A stretch of 54,865 bases of DNA from Coraliomargaritaceae bacterium (GCA_965656495.1 CBFHKU010000008.1:27739-82603); one strand, 5' to 3'. Numbered from the stretch's first letter, positions 1 through 53,156 are shown. Notes: generated by a model from the letters alone, not told the origin. Made by a program: numbers and translations.

Positions 1-308
1 TATTTTGTTTGAAACGCGGAGGAGCAGAGGAGCGGAGTGGTTATTTTGTTTGAAACGCGGAGGAGCAGAGAAGCGGAGGGATTTTATTGTTTGAAACGCG
101 AAGTAGCAGAGGGATAAAAATATTTTCAGCTTTTTGTGTTAACCCTAAAAAAACTCCGCTCCTCTGCTCCTCCGCGTTCCAATAATCTTTTACTACTCTG
201 AGTTAAAAAACCTAAAAAATCCTCCGCTCCTTCGTTCCTCTGCGTTACAAAAACAATCTCCGTTCCTCCGCTCCTCTGAGTTAAAAAAGATCTCCGCTCC
301 TCTGCGTT
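1..308. repeat. Family A repeat array: three forward arms then four to five inverted arms (arm consensus AACGCGGAG-GAGCAGAG-GAGCGGAG)
   Basis: Forward cores start at 13, 54 and 95 (exact 41-nt period, each preceded by TTGTTTGA). Reverse-complement copies lie at 154-178 (perfect RC of 13-37), 222-246, 258-282 and 292-308 (partial), with a remnant near 193-204. The array may extend beyond the window start. Confidence 0.92.
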
Positions 309-399
309 TAAAAAAGTATTACTGGGGAAGGATTTTTAGCTTGTATTTGAGTTTTAAATTTTAACAAAATAGATATTTGCAACTATAAAAATTAATCAA

Positions 400-804
400 A
401 TGATCACGGATATTAGCAAAGAAAACAAGCTGAGTGAGGCGGTCATTGGGGCGGCAATCGAAGTACACCAGGAGCTGGGAGGGCCGGGAATGTTGGAGCG
501 GGTTTACGAAGAAGCGCTGATGCATGAGCTAAAAGAAAGGGGGATCAATTATACGAATCAGTTGAGTATTCCGGTGAATTACAAAACAAAGACACTGGCA
601 AATCCGTTTTACTTAGACCTATTAATCGAAAAAAGTTTGATTGTAGAAGTGAAAGCTGTGTCAGAGATGAATGCGATATTTCAGGCACAGGTACTGACCT
701 ACTTACGTTTATGTAATTTAAAAGTGGGGCTGGTAATAAATTTTGGGCTTCCTCGTTTGATCGACGGAGTGAATCGAGTGATCAACAACAAGTACAAGCC
801 TTAG
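400..804 (+). CDS. GxxExxY protein (PD-(D/E)XK nuclease-like fold)
   Basis: 134 aa. IGAAIEVH..LGGPGMLERVYEEAL contains G-x-x-E-x-x-Y, followed by YLDLL..IVEVKAV, QVLTYL and GLVINFG, all typical of the family. Confidence 0.92.
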   Translation: MITDISKENKLSEAVIGAAIEVHQELGGPGMLERVYEEALMHELKERGINYTNQLSIPVNYKTKTLANPFYLDLLIEKSLIVEVKAVSEMNAIFQAQVLTYLRLCNLKVGLVINFGLPRLIDGVNRVINNKYKP

Positions 805-915
805 GTCCGGGCGGAGACTGATTTTGGTGGATTGGGGGACGATTCGTCCTTGTAGTTCAGGCAGGGAGGGCTTGTTTTATTTTGCAGGCTTATAGAGAAT
901 AGTAGAGTCAATGGT

Positions 916-1755
916 ATGTCTGATTTATTAGAGGTAGAAAATCTTCGCATTGCGTTTTTAAATGAAGGTACGACCAAGGAGGTGGTACACGGAATTGATT
1001 TCACGGTGGCGGCGGGCGGTGAGACGGTAGCGCTGCTCGGGGAGAGTGGAAGTGGCAAGAGTGTGACTTGTTTGGCGCTCACGCGGCTTTTGCCGGAGGG
1101 GGGTGCCTGTCGCTTGAACGGTCGTATACGTTTCGAGGGGCAGGAGGTGCTGGAGATGGATAATGCCAAATTGCAGGCCTTACGTGGGGCGGGGATCGCC
1201 TATATCTTTCAAGAACCGTCTGCTTCACTGAATCCGGTTTTTACGGTGGGCTATCAGATCGCGGAAGCGGTGAAGCTACACCGTCCCGATATAGATGACG
1301 TGACGGCACGGGTGGTGGAACTGTTGGAATTGGTTGGCATCCGCGACGCAGAAAAACGGCGCAAGGCTTACCCGCACGAAATGAGCGGGGGGATGCAGCA
1401 ACGGGTGATGATTGCAATGGCGCTCGCCTGTGAACCCAAACTTTTGGTGGCGGATGAACCGACCACCGCGCTCGATGTGACGATTCAGGCTCAGATCATG
1501 GAGCTGCTACGGGAACTGCGCAGCAAGCTCGGGATGAGCATTGTTTTAATCACGCACAACTTCGGGATCGTGAAAGGTTTCGCGGACGAAGTGATGGTGA
1601 TGTATCAGGGAGAAATCGTGGAGCGCGGCGCGGTGGATACTGTTTTGGAAAATCCGCAACATCCTTACACGCGCGCCTTGATTGCCTGCATTCCCAAACT
1701 CGGCGCGAAGCGCGAGCGGCTAAGCACGATTGGAGATGCGATGGCGCAGGACTAG
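916..1755 (+). CDS. oppD: Oligopeptide/dipeptide ABC transporter ATP-binding protein (OppD/DppD-like)
   Basis: Walker A GESGSGKS, signature MSGGMQQR, Walker B LLVADEPTTALD, C-terminal PQHPYT. Confidence 0.88.
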   Translation: MSDLLEVENLRIAFLNEGTTKEVVHGIDFTVAAGGETVALLGESGSGKSVTCLALTRLLPEGGACRLNGRIRFEGQEVLEMDNAKLQALRGAGIAYIFQEPSASLNPVFTVGYQIAEAVKLHRPDIDDVTARVVELLELVGIRDAEKRRKAYPHEMSGGMQQRVMIAMALACEPKLLVADEPTTALDVTIQAQIMELLRELRSKLGMSIVLITHNFGIVKGFADEVMVMYQGEIVERGAVDTVLENPQHPYTRALIACIPKLGAKRERLSTIGDAMAQD

Positions 1756-3554
1756 GGGGCTTGGGTTTCAGCCCAGTCGCAATAGATTGCGGTATTCAAT
1801 TTTTTGATTTGCTTGGACTTATTTTCAATTGTGGCACTTTTCACGACGAGGGATACTTTCCAGTCGGGAATTTCACAATTGGGTTCAATGATAATAACTT
1901 GCTCGTCAGGGCGACGATGCGCGTTTTTGCTAACTTCAATTATTTCTGAGATCTTTGTTTCAAGATTGAGTGAGGCTAAGGTTTTTTTATTGAGATAGAG
2001 ATGAAGCCATTGACCATCTGGCTTGGATGAGAATTCTATCTTTATACTTCCATGAGGAGATGGAAAGATGCGCGTTTGTGGCTCGTCGATAAAATTATAA
2101 ACATAAAAATCAGCCAGACGATACGCATGGCCGAGGGTTGGTTCTGGTCCTGAAAATTTAAATTTTGTAAGGTTCAAGTCGTCGCCATTTATCTTAAGAT
2201 ATTCAAAAAGAAGGGAATATTTATTCCATTTTCGTGATTCTTTAAAATCATCGCCCTGAGGCGATGCGTAGAATCCGGTCAGTTCTTTGGTGAGGTTTGC
2301 CTCGCCAAAGGCTTCGATAATGTATCGAAGGCTGCTCTTTAGTTGTTCGGCATTTTCCGAGTCAAATTCTGTTTCAGCTGGCTGCAGGATTCCGTTTTCG
2401 ATCATCCCCAATTTCTCAGACAGTATATGGACGCGCTCGATTTGAGCACGTTCGCTCCAGCTGAAAACACTGAATGGGCCGGCACAAAGGGCAAATAATG
2501 TGACCGCGAGCAGAGAAGCGGGGATGCAGGCGGGGTGCAAGCGATGGCGTAAGATATGGATGAGGCTCAGTGCTAGAAGCCAGAGTGCCAGAGCAATGCC
2601 AAAATAGCGATTAATGGTTAATCCATAGTTATTGAGGCGAATCTGTAGCGCCAGAAAAAGGACGATGGATAAGGGGAAGATGAGGCGAAAAATCCAACGA
2701 TGGTAGAGTTTTGCCCAAGGGGTTCGCTCGGTTAGCGGTTCTGAAAGCAGGTATGTAAACAGGCTTATTAGTGCGAGAATTAATATTGGCATCGCAACCC
2801 AGCCATTGGGCCAACTCCATTGAAGGAGTATTTTAGAGACATAGAGATAGAGGATAAGGAGATAGGTAGTGCTAAGCGGTAAAGCAATGAATCGTAGGGA
2901 AAAGTGGAGGGCTTTGGGGCAGGCAATCTCTTTTTGTGGATCATTGGCTTTGGGTACGCCCCCTAAGAAGAGAAGTGGGTGGACTAGGAACGCGCAGGCA
3001 ATCCAGAGCTTTAGGTATAAGTCTTCTTCGAGATCTAAGCCAAAGAGTTTTTCCACACTTAAGAGGGCAATCGCCAGACCAATAAAAAGCACCGCTGCAT
3101 TGATGCTGCTAAAGAAAAACTGCAAAAATAGCTTAAGGTTAAAAGACCAGAGTCTTTCTTTACTGGATGTTGCCAGGAGGGGCGTAAGCGCAATTCCTAG
3201 GTGTGTGACCAGTAGGATGAGGATGGTGCGATACCAGTAGGTAGAATTTAGGTGGTACGCTTCGGTGGGCGTGTAATAAAAACCATAAGCGGCAAGAGCC
3301 AACCCCGCAATGACTGAAAGGCAGAGAGCAATGTTCGAGTTAAGCTTACGAAATTCGGCGCATAGTTTGAGCAGAATTAAGAATGGAAAAGCTATCCCGG
3401 CTCCAACAGCTATGCGATAGAAGACAAAACTTTCACTGAATTCAACGGATAGAATTAGGCATGCAGTGACAACGACGGAAGCAATGAATGGAAGGGTAAA
3501 GCGATGGATGCTTGATAGCGCGCTGCTTAGGGTAGTTGTGATAAATTTTTTCAT
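1752..3554 (-). CDS. Polytopic membrane protein, DUF4153-like
   Basis: 600 aa. About 10-11 hydrophobic segments in the N-terminal 370 aa, RLNNYGLTINRY motif, soluble C-terminus. Confidence 0.6.
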   Translation of the reverse strand: MKKFITTTLSSALSSIHRFTLPFIASVVVTACLILSVEFSESFVFYRIAVGAGIAFPFLILLKLCAEFRKLNSNIALCLSVIAGLALAAYGFYYTPTEAYHLNSTYWYRTILILLVTHLGIALTPLLATSSKERLWSFNLKLFLQFFFSSINAAVLFIGLAIALLSVEKLFGLDLEEDLYLKLWIACAFLVHPLLFLGGVPKANDPQKEIACPKALHFSLRFIALPLSTTYLLILYLYVSKILLQWSWPNGWVAMPILILALISLFTYLLSEPLTERTPWAKLYHRWIFRLIFPLSIVLFLALQIRLNNYGLTINRYFGIALALWLLALSLIHILRHRLHPACIPASLLAVTLFALCAGPFSVFSWSERAQIERVHILSEKLGMIENGILQPAETEFDSENAEQLKSSLRYIIEAFGEANLTKELTGFYASPQGDDFKESRKWNKYSLLFEYLKINGDDLNLTKFKFSGPEPTLGHAYRLADFYVYNFIDEPQTRIFPSPHGSIKIEFSSKPDGQWLHLYLNKKTLASLNLETKISEIIEVSKNAHRRPDEQVIIIEPNCEIPDWKVSLVVKSATIENKSKQIKKLNTAIYCDWAETQAP

Positions 3555-3598
3555 ATGATGCTTTATGCGCGGTTTAGGTGCTACTGCGGAGTGATGAT

Positions 3599-3787
3599 TT
3601 AGCGAAACTGATTTTGTTCCGGTTGGTAGTGGTAGTCAGCGGATTTGAGGCGCTCGATGAGTTCGGCGGGATCGAGATCATGAGTGCGGCAAAAATCCTC
3701 AAAGGAATCGCAGTGATTGCGGAGGGCGGTATTGACGAGACCGACAAGTAAATGGGGATCCATGGTGTCGTAGTTGGGAAAATCCAT
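3599..3787 (-). CDS. DUF4250-family small protein
   Basis: MDPHLLVGLVNTALRNHCDSFEDFC...YHYQPEQNQFR matches the DUF4250 pattern. ATG at 3787 chosen over the TTG at 3793. Confidence 0.75.
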   Translation of the reverse strand: MDFPNYDTMDPHLLVGLVNTALRNHCDSFEDFCRTHDLDPAELIERLKSADYHYQPEQNQFR

Positions 3788-3883
3788 TTTCAAATATTAG
3801 GGTCGGGGGTATGTTTGTGCCAAGTGGATTTTTCAGCCTTATGGTGTTGAAGGCGCTTTAAAAATCGCTGAGGCTGTCTGGAA

Positions 3884-4702
3884 ATGGAAGGTGATTCACC
3901 AGTAAGCAAAGCAGCGAACCCGCTTCTCAAGATTGAGGGGTTGAAGGTGCATTTTCCGGTGCGTGCGGGGATTTTGCAACGGGTGGTGGACCATGTCAAA
4001 GCGGTGGATGGAGTTTCGTTCGAGGTGCCTCGCGGCACGACAGTTGGTTTGGTGGGCGAGAGCGGGAGCGGCAAGACCACTACGGGGCGTGCGATCGCGC
4101 GTTTGGTGCCGGTAACGGCGGGCAGCATACACTATGACGGCAGGGAACTGGTCGGGCTGAGTAACCGTGAATTTTTCCCATACCGGAAAAAAATCCAGGT
4201 CATTTTTCAGGATCCCTTTGGGTCATTAAATCCCCGGATGTCGGTTTACAGCATTATAGCGGAACCTTTGGAGATTCATTTCAAGGAATGGAGTCGCTCG
4301 CAACGCGAGGATCGTGTTGCGGATCTGCTGCGAAAGGTGGGCCTTGATCCGGAGGCGATGCGGCGCTACCCGCACCAGTTCAGCGGGGGGCAGCGTCAAC
4401 GCATTGGGATCGCGCGCGCGCTGGCGGTGGAGCCGGAATGCATCATCTGCGATGAACCGGTGAGTGCGCTGGATGTCTCGGTGCAGGCGCAGATCGTGAA
4501 TCTCCTGCAGGATTTACAGGATGAACTGGGCCTTACCTATCTGTTTATCGCGCACGACCTCGCGGTGGTGGAGCATATCAGCGACGAGGTGCTCGTTATG
4601 ACGGGCGGCAAAATCGTGGAGCAAGCCAGCGCCGAGGCGATTTACCGCAATCCCCAGCATCCCTACACCAAGGAATTGCTTGCGGCGATACCGGAACTCT
4701 AA
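3884..4702 (+). CDS. oppF: Oligopeptide/dipeptide ABC transporter ATP-binding protein (OppF/DppF-like)
   Basis: [46 protein letters not shown]. Confidence 0.88.
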
Positions 4703-4719
4703 ATCTAGTCATACCAGCC

Positions 4720-4857
4720 ATGAAAAACCCACTGCTTACAAGCCTACTGCTAGCGACGCTGCTTATCTTTACGGCGTGTTCGACCACCACTCAAGGGAGC
4801 GCCTCGGTGGTGCTTATCTTTGTGGAGGCCGCCGTGGAAATCGTGAATCCTTTTTAG
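4720..4857 (+). CDS. Putative 45-aa small lipoprotein (below ORF-track cutoff)
   Basis: Translated by hand: MKNPLLTSLLLATLLIFTA-CSTTTQGSASVVLIFVEAAVEIVNPF*. Basic N-terminus, hydrophobic core and lipobox-like FTAC. It fills the whole intergenic gap. Confidence 0.6.
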   Translation: MKNPLLTSLLLATLLIFTACSTTTQGSASVVLIFVEAAVEIVNPF

Positions 4858-5540
4858 CGCACGCGAATCGGGATAACAATTTCCGCTTGGTCGGGCGTTT
4901 GAACAAAGAGTTTACCGAAACCGGGGGCATCGCCTTGCAGGCTGAGACTGAGGGTGCGTGCTCCGGCGGGGAAGCGGGCTTCCGGCATGATCACGCTTTG
5001 CGGTACATCGGTGGTAACACGGATGGGCAGACCACCGGCGGGCGCGGGCTGCGCGAGTTCAAAGGCGATGGTCTGGCCTTGGCCTGAGCGCAGGTCGATG
5101 CTGGATGGAATGACCCGCAAGAATGCGCTGTTCTTGTTGTTGGAGGCTGCTTGCGGCGCAAGCACCCGCAAGGTTTGCACTTCGGTCTGCGCCTTTTGAA
5201 TTTCGTCGGGCGTATTATCCCTGAGGAGCTGGTATTGCATCTCAAAGTAATAGAGCGCCTCGGAACGGTTCGCAGGCAGGCTGTATTCGTATTCGTAGAA
5301 GCCGCCGCCGTCGGGGTGGGGCTGCATGCGATGGGTTTTGCCGTCAATGACGACATAGGTTTCCAGGGAATCGCGGTTTACGAGCGCATCGGTCAAGGCA
5401 ACCCGCGCGCTAAGGGTATAGAGTCCGGACGCCGAACGCGGGAGGGTTTCGGGCGTGTTGTTGAGGATCGCGACGGAGCAGCCGCTGAAAAAAAGCGACG
5501 CGATTGAGGCGAGTAGAGTAAAAATGCGCTTGGCTTTCAT
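4854..5540 (-). CDS. Hypothetical lipoprotein with probable beta-sandwich domains
   Basis: MKAKRIFTLLASIASLFFSG-C signal peptide II. Start moved to ATG 5540 to avoid overlap with hemW. Confidence 0.7.
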   Translation of the reverse strand: MKAKRIFTLLASIASLFFSGCSVAILNNTPETLPRSASGLYTLSARVALTDALVNRDSLETYVVIDGKTHRMQPHPDGGGFYEYEYSLPANRSEALYYFEMQYQLLRDNTPDEIQKAQTEVQTLRVLAPQAASNNKNSAFLRVIPSSIDLRSGQGQTIAFELAQPAPAGGLPIRVTTDVPQSVIMPEARFPAGARTLSLSLQGDAPGFGKLFVQTPDQAEIVIPIRVR

Positions 5541-5568
5541 GTACGTGGATGAAGATATGGTTTTGTCT

Positions 5569-6723
5569 ATGTTATCGCAAGGAAAAGAGTCGGGACCTCT
5601 GGGTCTATATGTGCATGTGCCTTTCTGCGCCTCCACCTGTGACTTCTGTGCTTTTTATCAGGAGAAACCCCGGCGGGGGGATCTCGACCGTTACCTTGCA
5701 GCGATGGAGCTTGAATTTTCCAAGCTGCCGCAGGATCGGATTGTAGAGACGGTCTTTTGGGGTGGGGGGACGCCGGGCTTGCTGGCTGCCAAAGACCTTG
5801 AGCGACTTGGCAGGGCGCAACTCCAGCGCCTCGGGGCTGCGCCGGCTGAATGGACCATTGAAATGGCTCCCTCCACTGTGAAACCCGACAAACTCGCGGT
5901 GCTTCGCGATCTCGGGGTCACCCGTATTTCGATGGGCGTTCAAAGCTTCGATGCCAAGCTCCTTGACTCGCTGGGTCGCCTGCATCAACCCAAGCAAATC
6001 TATCAAGCTTGGGAGCGCATTCAGGCGGCGGGCTTTGCGCACACGAACCTCGATCTTATTTTTGCGATTCCCAATCAAACCCAGGCACAATGGGAATCCG
6101 ATTTGCGCGAGGCCGCCCGCCTTGCGCCCGACCATATTTCCACTTATTGCCTGACTTTCGAGGAAGACACCGCCCTCTATGTAAAACTCTCGCAGGGCAA
6201 AGTTCGCATAGACGACGAGCGCGACGCGCAGTTCTACGAACGCGGATGGGACTTGCTCGCGGAACTCGGCTACGCGCAATACGAGATTTCCAACTTCTCA
6301 AAACCCGGCGGGGAATGCCGTCATAATCTCAACACCTGGCGCATGCATGAATGGATCGGCTGTGGCCCCTCCGCCGCCAGTCAATACGCCGGTCGGCGCT
6401 ATCAACGCCCCGCCAACCTCGATCAATGGCTCGCCGGGACGGAGTCGGGAGTGCCGCCCCGGGAGGACGAAGTGGTTTTAAACGATCGCCTCCTCTTAAC
6501 CGATGCGGTGGTGTTTGGACTGCGGATGAACGCCGGCATCGACCTCGGCGAGCTCAAGCATCGTTTTCCGGCTGCGGGGGAACTCAGTTCACTGCGTGCA
6601 CCATTGCAAAAATACCTCGATGAAGGCCTTTTGAATGTGGTGGGTCAGGAATATAGCCTCACACGACGCGGGCGTCTCCTCGCGGACGCGATCGGGAGCG
6701 ATATTTTGCAGCAAATCAATTAG
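5569..6723 (+). CDS. hemW: Radical SAM heme chaperone HemW (HemN-like)
   Basis: LYVHVPFCASTCDFCAF (CxxxCxxC), GGGTP, RISMGVQSF, YEISNF, CRHNLNTW. Start estimated. Confidence 0.85.
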   Translation: MLSQGKESGPLGLYVHVPFCASTCDFCAFYQEKPRRGDLDRYLAAMELEFSKLPQDRIVETVFWGGGTPGLLAAKDLERLGRAQLQRLGAAPAEWTIEMAPSTVKPDKLAVLRDLGVTRISMGVQSFDAKLLDSLGRLHQPKQIYQAWERIQAAGFAHTNLDLIFAIPNQTQAQWESDLREAARLAPDHISTYCLTFEEDTALYVKLSQGKVRIDDERDAQFYERGWDLLAELGYAQYEISNFSKPGGECRHNLNTWRMHEWIGCGPSAASQYAGRRYQRPANLDQWLAGTESGVPPREDEVVLNDRLLLTDAVVFGLRMNAGIDLGELKHRFPAAGELSSLRAPLQKYLDEGLLNVVGQEYSLTRRGRLLADAIGSDILQQIN

Positions 6724-6769
6724 GTTTATTTTTGTAAGGTCTGAAGACGAGGAACGTATAGTCTAAGCT

Positions 6770-7288
6770 ATGCGTTACCTAACTATTCTACTCTTTTCTC
6801 AATTCCTGAGTTTCACTGCGGCATTCGCGGTGATTGATATATATCTCGAGAACGTTGGTTCTTCGTCTCCCTATTATAAATTCTATTCCGATTCCAACAA
6901 AACCATTGAATATGACTTCTTGGGTGGGTCGGATACCTTAAACGTCAATCAAAGCTATCGGTTCTTCCGCGAAAGCACTGCAACGGGACATCCTTTTTTC
7001 ATCAGTGATGATCACGCCAATGCCTCAAATTTAACCAATGGTAGCGGACCGAGTAGTGACATCAGTCTCACTGGCAATGGCAGCTACACCAGCGGAATCG
7101 GAGCCAATCAGGCACTGACCCTCAGTTTCAACAGCGGTTTCGACGTGGGCAGCGACAAACTTTATTATTATTGCACTGCGCATCCGTCCATGGTCGGACA
7201 ATTCACAGTTGTGCCCGAACCGTCCACCTACGCACTGCTTGCTGGGGGCATGGCGATTGGGGTCGCGATCTATCGCCGGCGCAAATAG
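6770..7288 (+). CDS. PEP-CTERM-sorted protein with cupredoxin-like copper motif
   Basis: N-terminal signal peptide, GHPF...YYYCTAHPSM, then VPEPSTYALLAGG-TM-RRRK tail. Confidence 0.85.
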   Translation: MRYLTILLFSQFLSFTAAFAVIDIYLENVGSSSPYYKFYSDSNKTIEYDFLGGSDTLNVNQSYRFFRESTATGHPFFISDDHANASNLTNGSGPSSDISLTGNGSYTSGIGANQALTLSFNSGFDVGSDKLYYYCTAHPSMVGQFTVVPEPSTYALLAGGMAIGVAIYRRRK

Positions 7289-7312
7289 CGCTTACCTTTC
7301 GTTAAAATTTTC

Positions 7313-7340
7313 AAGCCCGCGTCCTGCGGGCTTTTTTTTT
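7313..7340 (+). terminator. Intrinsic terminator after the PEP-CTERM gene
   Basis: AAGCCCGC-gtcct-GCGGGCTT followed by a T run. Confidence 0.88.
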
Positions 7341-7355
7341 GGGCGTTGGGGTTTA

Positions 7356-7385
7356 AACCGCAGATGGGCGCAGATGAGCGCAGAT
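7356..7385 (+). repeat. Family B arm downstream of GxxExxY gene 2
   Basis: AACCGCAGAT-GGGCGCAGAT-GAGCGCAGAT (10-nt period). A decayed remnant lies at about 7401-7418. Confidence 0.88.
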
Positions 7386-7418
7386 GTTTTTTGGGTGGGG
7401 TAGATGCGGAGATGGGCG

Positions 7419-7817
7419 CTATGGTTTGGGGTTGTTGATGTAACGTTTGTATTCGAGGCGAGGGGATCCGAAGTTTATGAGGAGGGCGCGACGGAAGCCG
7501 GTTGCCTTTAGGTAGTGGAGCACTTGAGCGGTTTCGATATCGCCGAGTGCCTTGATGGTCTTCAATTCGACAATGATGTCTTCGTAACAGACAAAGTCAG
7601 CGCGGTAGGGCGTATTCAAGCTTCGCCCCTTGTAGTGGATAGGAATGGGGTATTCCCTGATTGAAGGAATGGCCCGTTCCGTCAGCTCCAGCTCGATGGC
7701 GTCCTGATAGACGGCTTCGAGGAAACCAGACCCGAGCTCCCGGTGCACCTCCATAGCTGCGCCGATAATGGCATAAGTCTCGGGGTCTTTCTTTGAATCT
7801 GCGTTCATCTGCGACAT
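7419..7817 (-). CDS. GxxExxY protein (PD-(D/E)XK nuclease-like fold)
   Basis: 132 aa. IIGAAMEVHRELGSGFLEAVYQDA, YRADFVC..IIVELK, QVLHYLKATG, LLINFG. Confidence 0.93.
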   Translation of the reverse strand: MSQMNADSKKDPETYAIIGAAMEVHRELGSGFLEAVYQDAIELELTERAIPSIREYPIPIHYKGRSLNTPYRADFVCYEDIIVELKTIKALGDIETAQVLHYLKATGFRRALLINFGSPRLEYKRYINNPKP

Positions 7818-7825
7818 CTGTGGTT
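7797..7825 (-). repeat. Family B arm overlapping the start of GxxExxY gene 2, inverted relative to 7356-7385
   Basis: Minus strand reads AACCACAGAT-GTCGCAGAT-GAACGCAGAT and encodes the N-terminal MSQMNAD. Confidence 0.88.
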
Positions 7826-7990
7826 CTACTCCTAAAGGTATTAGCTAAGATAGCTTAGGAACAGGGGTCGCTGGGGCGGTGCGGCTATCGAAGGAACCTT
7901 GCACCTGCCAAGGAATTTGCAATTAAAAATTCTTAAAGTGAGTTTAAGGCCCTCAATAATAAATAGTTTTTGAGGCAGCGGCTTGAAGCT

Positions 7991-9442
7991 TTAATCGTAG
8001 CGGCGGCGGAGGTTGGTGGCGAGGATGCCGAGGGCTTCGCGGTATTTTGCGACGGTGCGGCGGGCGATTTTGATGTCTTTTTCCTGCAATAGATTAACAA
8101 TGGCCTGGTCGCTGAGGGGTTTGGCGGGGTCCTCGTCTTCGATCAACTGGGCGATCATATCCTGCACGGATTTGTTGGAGACGGCGTCTCCGGTGGCGGA
8201 TTTGTAGCCGGTGGTGAAGAAGTATTTGAAGGGGAAGGTGCCGTGGGGGGTGCGGATGTATTTGTTGGCGGTGGCGCGGCTGATGGTGGTCTCGTGAACG
8301 CCGACGACTTGCGCGACGGTGTTCATGGTGAGGGGTCGGAGTTTTGCGATGCCTTCTTCGAAAAATTCGCGCTGATGGATGAGGAGTTCGCGGGTGATGC
8401 GTTCGATGGTTTGTTGGCGTTGCTCAATGGAATTGATCAGGAATTTTCCGGAGCGGAGGCGTTCGAGGAGAAATTCCTTTTCGGATTTACTGAGGGTGCT
8501 TTTGGCGAGCATGGCCTTGTAGGTGCTGTTGATCCGGAGCTTGGGGATGTAATCGTTGTGGAGGTGCACTTGCCATTGGTCGTATTCGTCGAGGAAGACG
8601 GTGACATCGGGGTCGACGACGGTGTTGCTGTCGGGAGCGAAGCGTTTGCCGGGGGCGGGGTCGAGCCGTCCGATTTGAGTGATGGCGTCCTGGATTTCAT
8701 CGGGTTTAGCGCCGGTGAAGCGGGCGAGTTCGGGGATGCGGCGCCGTACAAGGAGTTTAAAGTGTTCGCGCAGGATGCGGCGGGGGAGGCTTGCTTCGTT
8801 GTGACCGAGGCGGGTGAGCTGGGTATCGAGGCAATCCCGGAGGTCTGCGGTTCCGATTCCGGCGGGGTCAAAGGACTTGAGGCGTTCGGAGGCCGCCTGC
8901 ATGAGTCCGAGGGGGAGGCGTGACTGGAGGGCGCAGTTGGAAAGGCTTTCGGTGAGGAAACCGTGATCGTCGAGGCTTCCGATGAGGTAGAGGAGTGCTT
9001 CGCGCTCGCTTTCGGTGCAGTTGGTGAGTTCCGCTTGTTGGATGAGGTGCTGCTGGAGGGAGGTACCGAGCACGAGGGAATTGAGGAAGTGTTCACGGCG
9101 CGCCTCGTCTTCGCTGTTGTAGCTTTGGCCGCTGTTTTCTTCGGCGAATTGTTGACGGATGTCTTCGTTGAGGCGATCGAGGGTTGAGAAATCCTCGGCG
9201 TCGAAGTTGAGTTCGTCGCTTTCGCCGCTGCGGTCTTCGTCTTTGTTTTGGCTCAAGTCCTCAACGCTAATGCTGTCGAGGGGCAGTTCCTCGAGTAGGG
9301 GATTGTTTTGAAGTTCTTCGAGGATGGAGGTGCGTAATTCTGTCGCGGGTGCCTGCAGGATTTTGAGGGAATTGCGCAACTGTGGCGCAAGTACCTGTGA
9401 TTGCGTCTGTTTTTGGCTTTGTTGGAATTCCTGTGCACACAT
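7991..9442 (-). CDS. rpoN: RNA polymerase sigma-54 factor
   Basis: Gln-rich region I ([19 protein letters not shown]), [12 protein letters not shown], RpoN box [10 protein letters not shown]. Start at ATG 9442. Confidence 0.96.
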
Positions 9443-9497
9443 GTTGGTCAGGATACAAAAACAATTTTTTATAAGAAAAACAAGTAGATTTGCGATT

Positions 9498-9514
9498 CTA
9501 GCACGAAAATTGCT
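9498..9514 (+). promoter_or_regulatory. Near-consensus sigma-54 (-24/-12) site between divergent rpoN and iscA-like genes
   Basis: CTAGCACGAAAATTGCT against consensus YTGGCACGNNNNTTGCW: one mismatch, in the GG dinucleotide. Confidence 0.45.
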
Positions 9515-9565
9515 GTAGCTTTTGTGTTTGTTGACAAGCTGCAAAATCCGCAGTTCATTATTGTT

Positions 9566-29239: not shown

Positions 29240-29334
<95 letters not shown>

Positions 29335-46251: not shown

Positions 46252-46327
46252 TTGGATCTCGATTTATTATTTAGGTTGAGACCCGGCTGCTTCGGCAGAG
46301 AAGCGAAAGCGTACGCGCTGGCACGAT

Positions 46328-46430
46328 TACCTTTCCCTACGCCGGTATGAGCCGGATCAGGTTCGAAGGGATCGCTTTGTGCTAGTGCAGGAAGCTGTCT
46401 CAGACCCATGCCAGGTCACCCCTAAGGAAG
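46328..46430 (-). promoter_or_regulatory. TPP riboswitch
   Basis: Minus strand AGGGGTG...CTGAGA...CCCTTCGAACCTGATCCGGCTCATACCGGCGTAGGGA matches the THI-box consensus. Confidence 0.95.
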
Positions 46431-46537
46431 TGATGAACATCATGCGCATACTTTAATGAGTCAACCAAGAAGCGCGGAATTCTTTAAGAAAGACAGAAAA
46501 AGGTGGTCAATTAGGCAGACTTCACAAACATGCTTTC

Positions 46538-52981: not shown

Positions 52982-53069
52982 TTATCGGTCATCCAAGAAA
53001 TGCAAGTATGCGTGATACCGCTCCCAACTAATAAAGAGTCAAAAATATAAACACAGCGTTCCATCGCCC

Positions 53070-53156
53070 CTCTGATCCTCCGCTCCTCTGCTCCTCTGCT
53101 CCTCCGCGTTATAAGATAAAACACATAGCCCCTCCGATCCTCCGATTCTCCGCGTT
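53070..53156 (-). repeat. Solo family A arms (same family as 1-308)
   Basis: Plus strand CTCTGATC-CTCCGCTC-CTCTGCTC-CTCTGCTC-CTCCGCGTT (53070-53110) and CTCCGATC-CTCCGATT-CTCCGCGTT (53132-53156). Confidence 0.88.

Follow-up and report, generated by a model that had tools for sequence, protein, structure and literature searches.

In the pairing of repetitive extragenic palindromes (REPs) with REP-associated tyrosine transposases (RAYTs), one gene type goes with one repeat type, a repeat cluster lies beside the gene and gene-less doublets or tandem arrays are found elsewhere; several divergent RAYT paralogs occur per genome, are rare on plasmids and are largely vertically inherited (PMC3116915, PMC5581495). 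In the intervening sequences (IVSs) of 23S rRNA with an S23p gene, a small open reading frame (ORF) lies within inverted arms of short tandem repeats, inside a transcription unit, and decays (PMC4990558). These features are shared by the genes and repeats found in a 54,865-nucleotide stretch of DNA from a Coraliomargaritaceae bacterium (GCA_965656495.1, CBFHKU010000008.1:27739-82603; the whole stretch is called the window), in which two GxxExxY genes lie beside short repeats, referred to as arms. GxxExxY/PDDEXK_3 is a widespread family of unknown function, and PF13366 has been listed as such, with multiple transfers (PMC3424549). The explanation considered best overall, in which roughly even confidence is placed, is a heritable cassette of a GxxExxY gene and its arms, whose nuclease would act on its own arm type.

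A first-pass annotation of this DNA had reported two such genes, arms of families A and B, and three states: a gene between arms, a gene-less pair and solo arms. All of this was borne out by gene calls, profile scores and the coordinates of the arms, as follows:

1..123, plus strand: family-A forward arms in 41-nucleotide tandem units (13-37, 54-78 and a degenerate third)
141..308, minus strand: reverse arms of family A at 154-178, 222-246 and 258-282, with two further partial units; together with the forward array they make up a palindrome
400..804, plus strand: GxxExxY gene A, TIGR04256/PF13366, 134 aa, 'DG'-type C-terminus, predicted catalytic residues E33, D73, E83 and K85
7356..7385, plus strand: family-B right arm, three CGCAGAT cores with periods of 10 and 10
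7419..7817, minus strand: GxxExxY gene B, TIGR04256/PF13366, 132 aa, 'LEYKR'-type C-terminus
7797..7825, minus strand: family-B left arm, cores CACAGAT, CGCAGAT and CGCAGAT with periods of 9 and 10
53046..53156, minus strand: gene-less family-A array, a short forward half-arm and shared linker followed by reverse arms at 53086-53110 and 53132-53156

The two genes are convergent and their products 42% identical. Proteins A and B scored 133.6 and 141.7 bits against TIGR04256 (cut-off 35) and 130.1 and 132.1 against PF13366 (PDDEXK_3; cut-off 22), with no matches to other families. Treating A and B as one system was ruled out by their different clades, independent presence and unrelated junctions, and they are separate, independent cassettes.

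Cassette B, downstream of rpoN, has the canonical form: an arm containing the ATG of the gene, the gene and an inverted arm. The family-A arm consists of AAC and three 8-nucleotide units. The three tandem subunits described earlier were present, with a period of 8 in family A and 9-10 in family B, and the GC(A/G)GA core claimed for them did not extend to the first subunit of the B left arm, which is CACAGAT. Around gene A the order is oppC (upstream of the window), forward A array, reverse A array, 90 nucleotides, gene A and oppD; apart from oppD and rpoN, host genes named in this text were recognised from the sequence and are presumably those genes. An assembly gap of 98 N directly precedes the window start, and four further forward 41-nucleotide units lie upstream of it, directly after the oppC stop codon; because the gap falls inside the array, the number of units is incomplete. 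The array beside gene A is an amplified arm. No downstream arm remains at this gene in the source genome (G000; its contigs are given as C-numbers), and the gene itself is intact. Folded as DNA, region 1-330 reached -69.5 kcal/mol (z = -7.95), a stability equalled by none of 100 shuffles. A clustered regularly interspaced short palindromic repeat (CRISPR) array was ruled out, as the units are near-identical, lack variable spacers and have no Rfam match. The last codons of oppC (C8:27455-27478, just before the window) resemble an A-arm subunit, and the OppC protein is 3 residues longer than in the related genome G003.

In the source genome, a count of family-A arms gave 73 matches at 24 sites (0, 0 and 0 in three shuffles), and arms of all types numbered 156 (11 and 10 in two shuffles). 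The arms annotated as solo at 53070-53156 are present; they proved to be part of a unit of about 54 nucleotides with a short forward half-arm, the linker of which is found again at 10 of the 24 A sites. This array also occurs in G006, and only a partial unit is left in G003. TIGR04256 had 7 matches in the source genome, comprising four full-length genes besides fragments, with, in addition, an internally deleted copy on C6, and the arm type differed per locus: A, B, a CACCAC-type at C8:4742, a CCCGCTAAG-type at metK-ahcY and CACGAAT at leuB-alaS. At least 17 arms of a GAC-CGCT type were also seen there, with no gene of that clade found in this genome; G004 and G006 have one.

Homologous loci (L-numbers) were collected from several sources: 90 loci for 107 genome matches, 3 A-like loci, the 80 metagenome loci most like B out of at least 582 hits, 3 viral loci, one contig-search locus and 4 own loci. 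When protein A was the only query, a contig search yielded a single weak locus. Among the 181 loci, 179 had a hit and 154 were full-length with flanks. A gene-facing arm was detected at 121 of these 154 and both arms at 83, compared with 34 and 12 in the wrong orientation, 0 of 770 shuffled flanks and 5 of 600 random genome windows, which upheld the expected enrichment of arms at GxxExxY genes, counted by a detector that misses the L008/L029/L036 arm type and arms with a broken core. In the subclade of L008, L029, L036 and L050, arms of another, non-triplet type stand at several junctions, and the arm of the deleted C6 copy (C6:5500-5700) is loosely similar to them. Four loci (L082, L085, L086 and L087) have long open frames with a GxxExxY domain (about 260-285 aa) and no detectable arms.

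The relation between protein and arm was followed on a tree of 151 proteins (after removal of 4 long forms and addition of L113) built by a quick method from 129 columns, with 68 of 146 inner branches open; 124 tips were labelled, with A, L113 and L114 assigned by hand. Arm class changed 69 times on this tree, against a mean of 114.6 after shuffling (0 of 200 shuffles as low), and the last core base changed 11 times over the labelled tips. Pairs at different sites had this base in common in 27-34% of cases at 20-40% protein identity and in 85% at 50-60% identity, and the nearest protein at another site had the same base for 103 of 124 tips (baseline 0.42). Arm similarity still increased with protein identity when same-site pairs were removed. 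Proteins from the same genome with less than 50% identity shared the base in 21 of 79 pairs, whereas those from different genomes with at least 50% identity did so in 119 of 140, and proteins 82-88% identical at different junctions of different genomes kept the same arm type (e.g., L001/L003 versus L006). Gene A belongs to the clade with the DG-type C-terminus, in which cores end in G for 33 of 33 proteins versus 10 of 90 others; gene B belongs to a 23-member group with GAT-ending arms of period 9-10 in 19. Judged by these comparisons, arm type follows the protein clade across insertion sites and not the host genome, as the annotation had anticipated, and the unit of inheritance is the gene together with its arms.

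The position of the cassettes bears on whether they work as DNA or RNA. The upstream gene was co-oriented in 84 of 92 loci, 72 of which had the stop within 60 nucleotides, with a median of 11 nucleotides from stop to arm (mirror control for a co-oriented stop: 31/90, noisy). Downstream, a co-oriented start was found in 70 of 90 loci, and the left arm lay within the open frame of the gene in 45 of 101. No sigma-70 promoter match was obtained in 1-950. This placement would suit an RNA-level intervening sequence, the arms of which would pair in polycistronic mRNA so that RNase III or the protein excised the cassette or controlled translation, in the manner of 23S rRNA IVSs with the S23p gene. A precedent is the Coxiella IVS, with heptamer repeats in an RNase III-cut terminal stem around a four-helix-bundle ORF (PMC4990558), and the B arms are able to pair at -39.6 kcal/mol. 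The reading is nevertheless improbable, the least favoured of those considered here. Co-orientation is also expected of any promoterless insert. In 77 arm pairs, mismatches compatible with G-U pairing numbered 70 versus 78 of A-C type (p = 0.57; per locus, 22 versus 27) in a test that had no positive control, and 157 were transversions. On the mRNA strand, the two transition mismatches of the B stem are both A-C, gene A is intact despite the loss of its downstream arm, and arrays in one orientation, such as C9:7451-7619, cannot pair arm with arm. Core positions were conserved within a locus in 1485 of 1617 cases and spacers in 214 of 361, the former value being partly circular because the detector favours C-R-Y-N-N-A cores by design. 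As no G-U bias was seen, transversions are many and cores are kept over spacers, phased protein sites on duplex DNA appear to fit better than a selected RNA stem, and we infer that the cassettes would act on double-stranded DNA rather than RNA.

The AlphaFold model (predicted local distance difference test of 95) has a PD-(D/E)XK fold. Cas4, restriction enzymes and Hjc were the top matches of a fold search (best Z of 7.4, root-mean-square deviation of 4.7 over 101 aligned residues), and these were not separated from lower rows. A sequence search of the PDB gave only a weak match to T7 endonuclease I (E = 0.049) and a search of the ESM Atlas only GxxExxY clusters; no single family was singled out by the fold searches, so that a junction-resolvase role is a possibility at most. 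Among 151 proteins, D73 was conserved in 149, E/D83 in 149 and K85 in 151. The median omega was 0.06 (9 same-site pairs with measurable dS), and same-site genes were not younger than their host flanks. By these measures, purifying selection acts on the resident proteins, and their PD-(D/E)XK motif is intact.

Orthologous sites were found in filled, deleted, gene-less and empty states, a comparison that the annotation had proposed. The oppC-oppD junction was surveyed at 35 loci and oppC was adjacent in 29. A tblastn search revealed the A cassette or its remnant at six loci, intact in the source genome and in G311, the latter with both arms, and broken in G005, G021, G224 and G382. Other content, assigned by eye, comprised 4 other GxxExxY-family arms, 12 heptamers of four-helix-bundle type and 7 short junctions without recognisable repeat. 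The closest A homolog lies at the same junction in another genus, flanked by two inverted A-type arms, and A is an old resident of this junction. Cassette B is present in G006, which is about 94% identical in DNA to the source genome (57 codons compared, zero amino-acid changes), and absent in G003; a contig of run X14 joins 7283 to 7995, a B-less allele the short side of which has only 30 letters. At metK-ahcY, the cassette is full in the source genome, a gene-less palindrome via internal deletion in G006, and the site is empty in G001, G002 and G005. At leuB-alaS, the source genome has three copies in tandem with host flanks, the middle one full and the outer two deleted; a deleted copy occurs in G003, a gene-less one in G004 and a half-arm in G001. 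In G006 (L205), the exact GxxExxY point of that junction is held by a broken TIGR02436 four-helix-bundle cassette with heptamer arms, identified by NCBIfam and missed by tblastn with the four TIGR02436 proteins of the source genome. No clean empty A allele was found at C10, C4:11800 and C6:51000, where the flanks are rearranged. The states across orthologous sites indicate that cassettes are old and decay often and that junctions are re-occupied by other clades or families.

Long residence at single junctions and strong purifying selection would also be expected of a domesticated nuclease that serves the host in repair, defence or addiction, for which the arms would be operator or protection sites and the cassette would move only as a passenger. 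Gene B matched 8 of 72,556 plasmid records and 0 of 50,697 phage records, a near-absence resembling the housekeeping-type distribution of RAYTs (PMC5581495). The Rpn PD-(D/E)XK proteins are anti-phage toxin-antitoxins (10.1101/2023.05.02.539157), and Rpn/YhgA (PDDEXK_2) genes are likewise multi-copy PD-(D/E)XK genes once called transposases (PMC5350276, 10.1101/2023.05.02.539157). They are, however, larger, with variable C-termini, are reported as toxin-antitoxins and belong to another Pfam family, and the opening parts of the abstracts do not mention arms. Against a host role stand the frequent decay, with 4 of the 6 A cassettes at oppC-oppD broken, and the decay series at leuB-alaS and metK-ahcY within one genus. 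Homologs number 0-11 per genome, with no match in 13 of 41 genomes, and the neighbours are unrelated housekeeping junctions. We regard this reading as unlikely, although it is the most credible of the rivals.

In the favoured explanation, the cassette is a GxxExxY gene with a pair of inverted arms, each of three phased 7-base cores, placed just after a host stop codon. The nuclease would bind and nick or cut DNA at its own arm type, with the cores on one helix face (their spacing of 8-11 nucleotides is near one helical turn). Cleavage would trigger recombination; now and then, repair by the host would place a copy of the cassette at a new gene junction, and amplification or deletion of its parts in place would be the commoner outcome. 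Recognition and cutting of the arms by the protein may be called likely, at a confidence that we put no higher than even. More tentatively, and as a possibility short of even, the cassettes might constitute a new class of prokaryotic selfish DNA. In it, a 130-aa PD-(D/E)XK nuclease would read a clade-specific three-core code and move its cassette, without target duplication, into post-stop operon junctions, where GxxExxY clades and four-helix-bundle cassettes would replace each other and dead arms would build mosaic intergenic repeats. The longest direct match outside the arms averaged 4.56 (82 loci) versus 4.34 for unrelated loci, giving no sign of a target-site duplication, although old duplications may have decayed; 17 of 129 genes lay between long direct repeats. 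Movement is real but slow, and that it is self-driven is what we infer.

Several findings weigh against this explanation. Synonymous sites of same-site genes are mostly saturated and same-genome copies are at most 73% identical (133 pairs), so that no self-driven move was observed as it happened. A single recent transfer between genera could be read cleanly (L022/L023/L064, with about 950 bp at 89% nucleotide identity); it concerns a unit bounded by a separate 17-bp inverted repeat and was therefore a move as cargo, a point in favour of a host role for the nuclease. This outer repeat, met also in L352-L375, occurs in 43 of 101 family genomes in up to 34 copies, and no transposase was found beside it among the 21 of 30 adjoining ORFs that were scanned. 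Where their history is readable (leuB-alaS and metK-ahcY), gene-less palindromes were made by in-place gene deletion. A second A-arm pattern, searched in 101 family genomes, gave 47 matches in the source genome, 16 in G006, where no A gene was found, and at most 3 elsewhere; G311, with an intact A gene, has 1 A-arm match only. Spacers are more alike within a locus (214/361) than across loci of one family (780/1896), a likeness also expected from pairing or gene conversion. Linkage alone can produce the co-variation of clade and arm. Residue-to-base co-evolution (the DG trait) offers only 2 independent contrasts and gene and arms are linked, so that the co-variation shows a stable unit and not recognition.

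A further set of adverse findings concerns what else moves in these junctions. The gene-less B arms, at 7 sites, lie in 7 of 7 cases inside mosaics with RAYT REPs, and four-helix-bundle cassettes, which have no known nuclease, share the design and occupy the same junctions. The TIGR02436 genes L171-L174 (C1:370529, C3:59917, C3:105098 and C3:150281) are built as cassettes in the same way: each stands just after a co-oriented gene and has a repeat of its own, and inverted periodic arms are clear in 3 of the 4. In L338 (oppC-oppD of G016), the ORF between arms of GxxExxY type is an unrelated one of 163 aa, for which NCBIfam gave no match. GxxExxY genes might be mere cargo, with a common machinery acting in trans (RAYT, recombination by the host or a reverse transcriptase) moving and amplifying any small ORF bracketed by arms, four-helix-bundle genes included. 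A RAYT-type REP was found near 30 of 53 arm sites in the source genome, compared with 47 of 2000 random windows. This REP has 180 matches and flanks the Y1 transposase gene at C9, and the mosaics interleave GxxExxY arms, the 6-8-nucleotide repeats that flank the four TIGR02436 genes, and the RAYT REP. Among 7 genomes of the genus, the source genome is the only one with a RAYT or reverse-transcriptase match and also the richest in arms, and the TIGR02436 cassette of G006 sits exactly at the GxxExxY position of the source genome. Such a scheme leaves unexplained why arm sequence follows nuclease clade down to about 50% identity and why catalytic residues are conserved; moreover, a REP is absent nearby at 21 of the 24 family-A sites, and no RAYT or reverse transcriptase was found in G006 with its 16 A arms. 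It is judged improbable, less credible than a host role.

Returning to the nuclease-driven cassette, family A probably spread without REPs, and for the other families part of the spread was probably by riding in RAYT/REP mosaics or other repeats. Most gene-less arms are what decay left behind, and were multiplied afterwards. The earlier proposal that each protein spreads its own arms was supported only in part: the gene-less B arms are all in REP mosaics, junctions are shared with four-helix-bundle cassettes and the clean transfer was cargo. For family A it is plausible that the nuclease disperses gene-less arms; for B this is doubtful. Mosaic regions of the source genome, with arms of several GxxExxY families, were noted at C1:74500-75600, C1:93850-94850, C1:400500-401200, C4:154700-155400 and C5:150700-151350, and blocks of a few hundred bases reappear at distant sites. 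The reverse-transcriptase gene, found only in this genome among the 7 of the genus, lies at C13:33267-33737.

Compared with REP/RAYT systems, the GxxExxY cassettes likewise show co-variation of repeat class with gene clade and dispersed gene-less copies. They differ in that the protein is a PD-(D/E)XK and not a Y1 HUH enzyme, with no HUH transposase beside the A or B repeats; the source genome has its own separate RAYT/REP family, and its PF01797 genes lie away from A and B with their own REPs. The GxxExxY arm has three direct 7-nucleotide cores and is palindromic only as a pair, whereas a REP is a palindrome with a GTAG/CGTC tag (PMC3116915, PMC5581495), and the GxxExxY gene usually lies between the arms, with many gene-less copies derived from in-place deletion of the gene. 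The TIGR02436 cassettes of the source genome have the same layout, even at the same junctions. Unlike 23S rRNA IVSs, GxxExxY cassettes lie between protein genes (oppC/oppD; rpoN) and not in rRNA, encode a nuclease fold, space their cores 8-11 nucleotides apart instead of in contiguous heptamers and show no G-U bias, in the test without positive control. With insertion sequences (ISs) and miniature inverted-repeat transposable elements (MITEs) they share a gene between terminal inverted repeats and short gene-less derivatives, but they have no DDE or HUH transposase, target duplication or near-identical copies in one genome, and are almost absent from plasmids. PD-(D/E)XK and EDxHD families are named among the free-standing homing endonucleases (PMC6083498). 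Those of the T4 Seg/Mob kind are also intron-less nuclease genes between conserved host genes, with filled/empty polymorphism and self-amplification with flanks, as for SegB (PMC13096335). Such endonucleases are not known to carry terminal arms or to leave gene-less derivatives; they are borne by phages and cut the empty allele, whereas the GxxExxY genes are chromosomal, were not found in phages and encode only about 130 aa. Of these systems, the cassettes work most like REP/RAYT, yet they belong to none of REP/RAYT, IS/MITE and IVS. Heptamer repeats inside operons have been described, without a link to the GxxExxY family in the text available (PMC4679880). GxxExxY is not mentioned in the available main text of PMC3733652, the supplementary repeat tables of which could bear on novelty, and no description of GxxExxY-flanking arms was found in the literature searched, which mostly excluded subscription papers and did not cover supplements.

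The arms give each clade of the family a named candidate substrate, and function is directly testable, as one window holds two natural pairs (A with 8-nucleotide and B with 9-10-nucleotide arms) that can serve as mutual controls. If the explanation is true, there would be a class of mobile DNA that uses neither DDE, HUH nor serine/tyrosine recombinases, much of the unannotated repeat content between the genes of these genomes would be accounted for, and the proteins would be sequence-specific nucleases of very small size, with a protein-DNA code that can be read.

The host genes next to the two cassettes are the following:

916..1755, plus strand: oligopeptide/dipeptide ATP-binding cassette (ABC) ATPase, oppD-like, 3' of cassette A
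7991..9544, minus strand: rpoN (sigma-54), upstream of and co-directional with cassette B

An Rfam scan of the window gave only a thiamine pyrophosphate (TPP) riboswitch and a tRNA (coordinates listed together: 46317-46433 and 29243-29326). The gene of a DUF4153 membrane protein (window 1762-3598) is absent from a related strain, as seen at a contig joint in run X14. At the right end of C6, an integrase-like ORF with a tandem repeat was noticed by eye.

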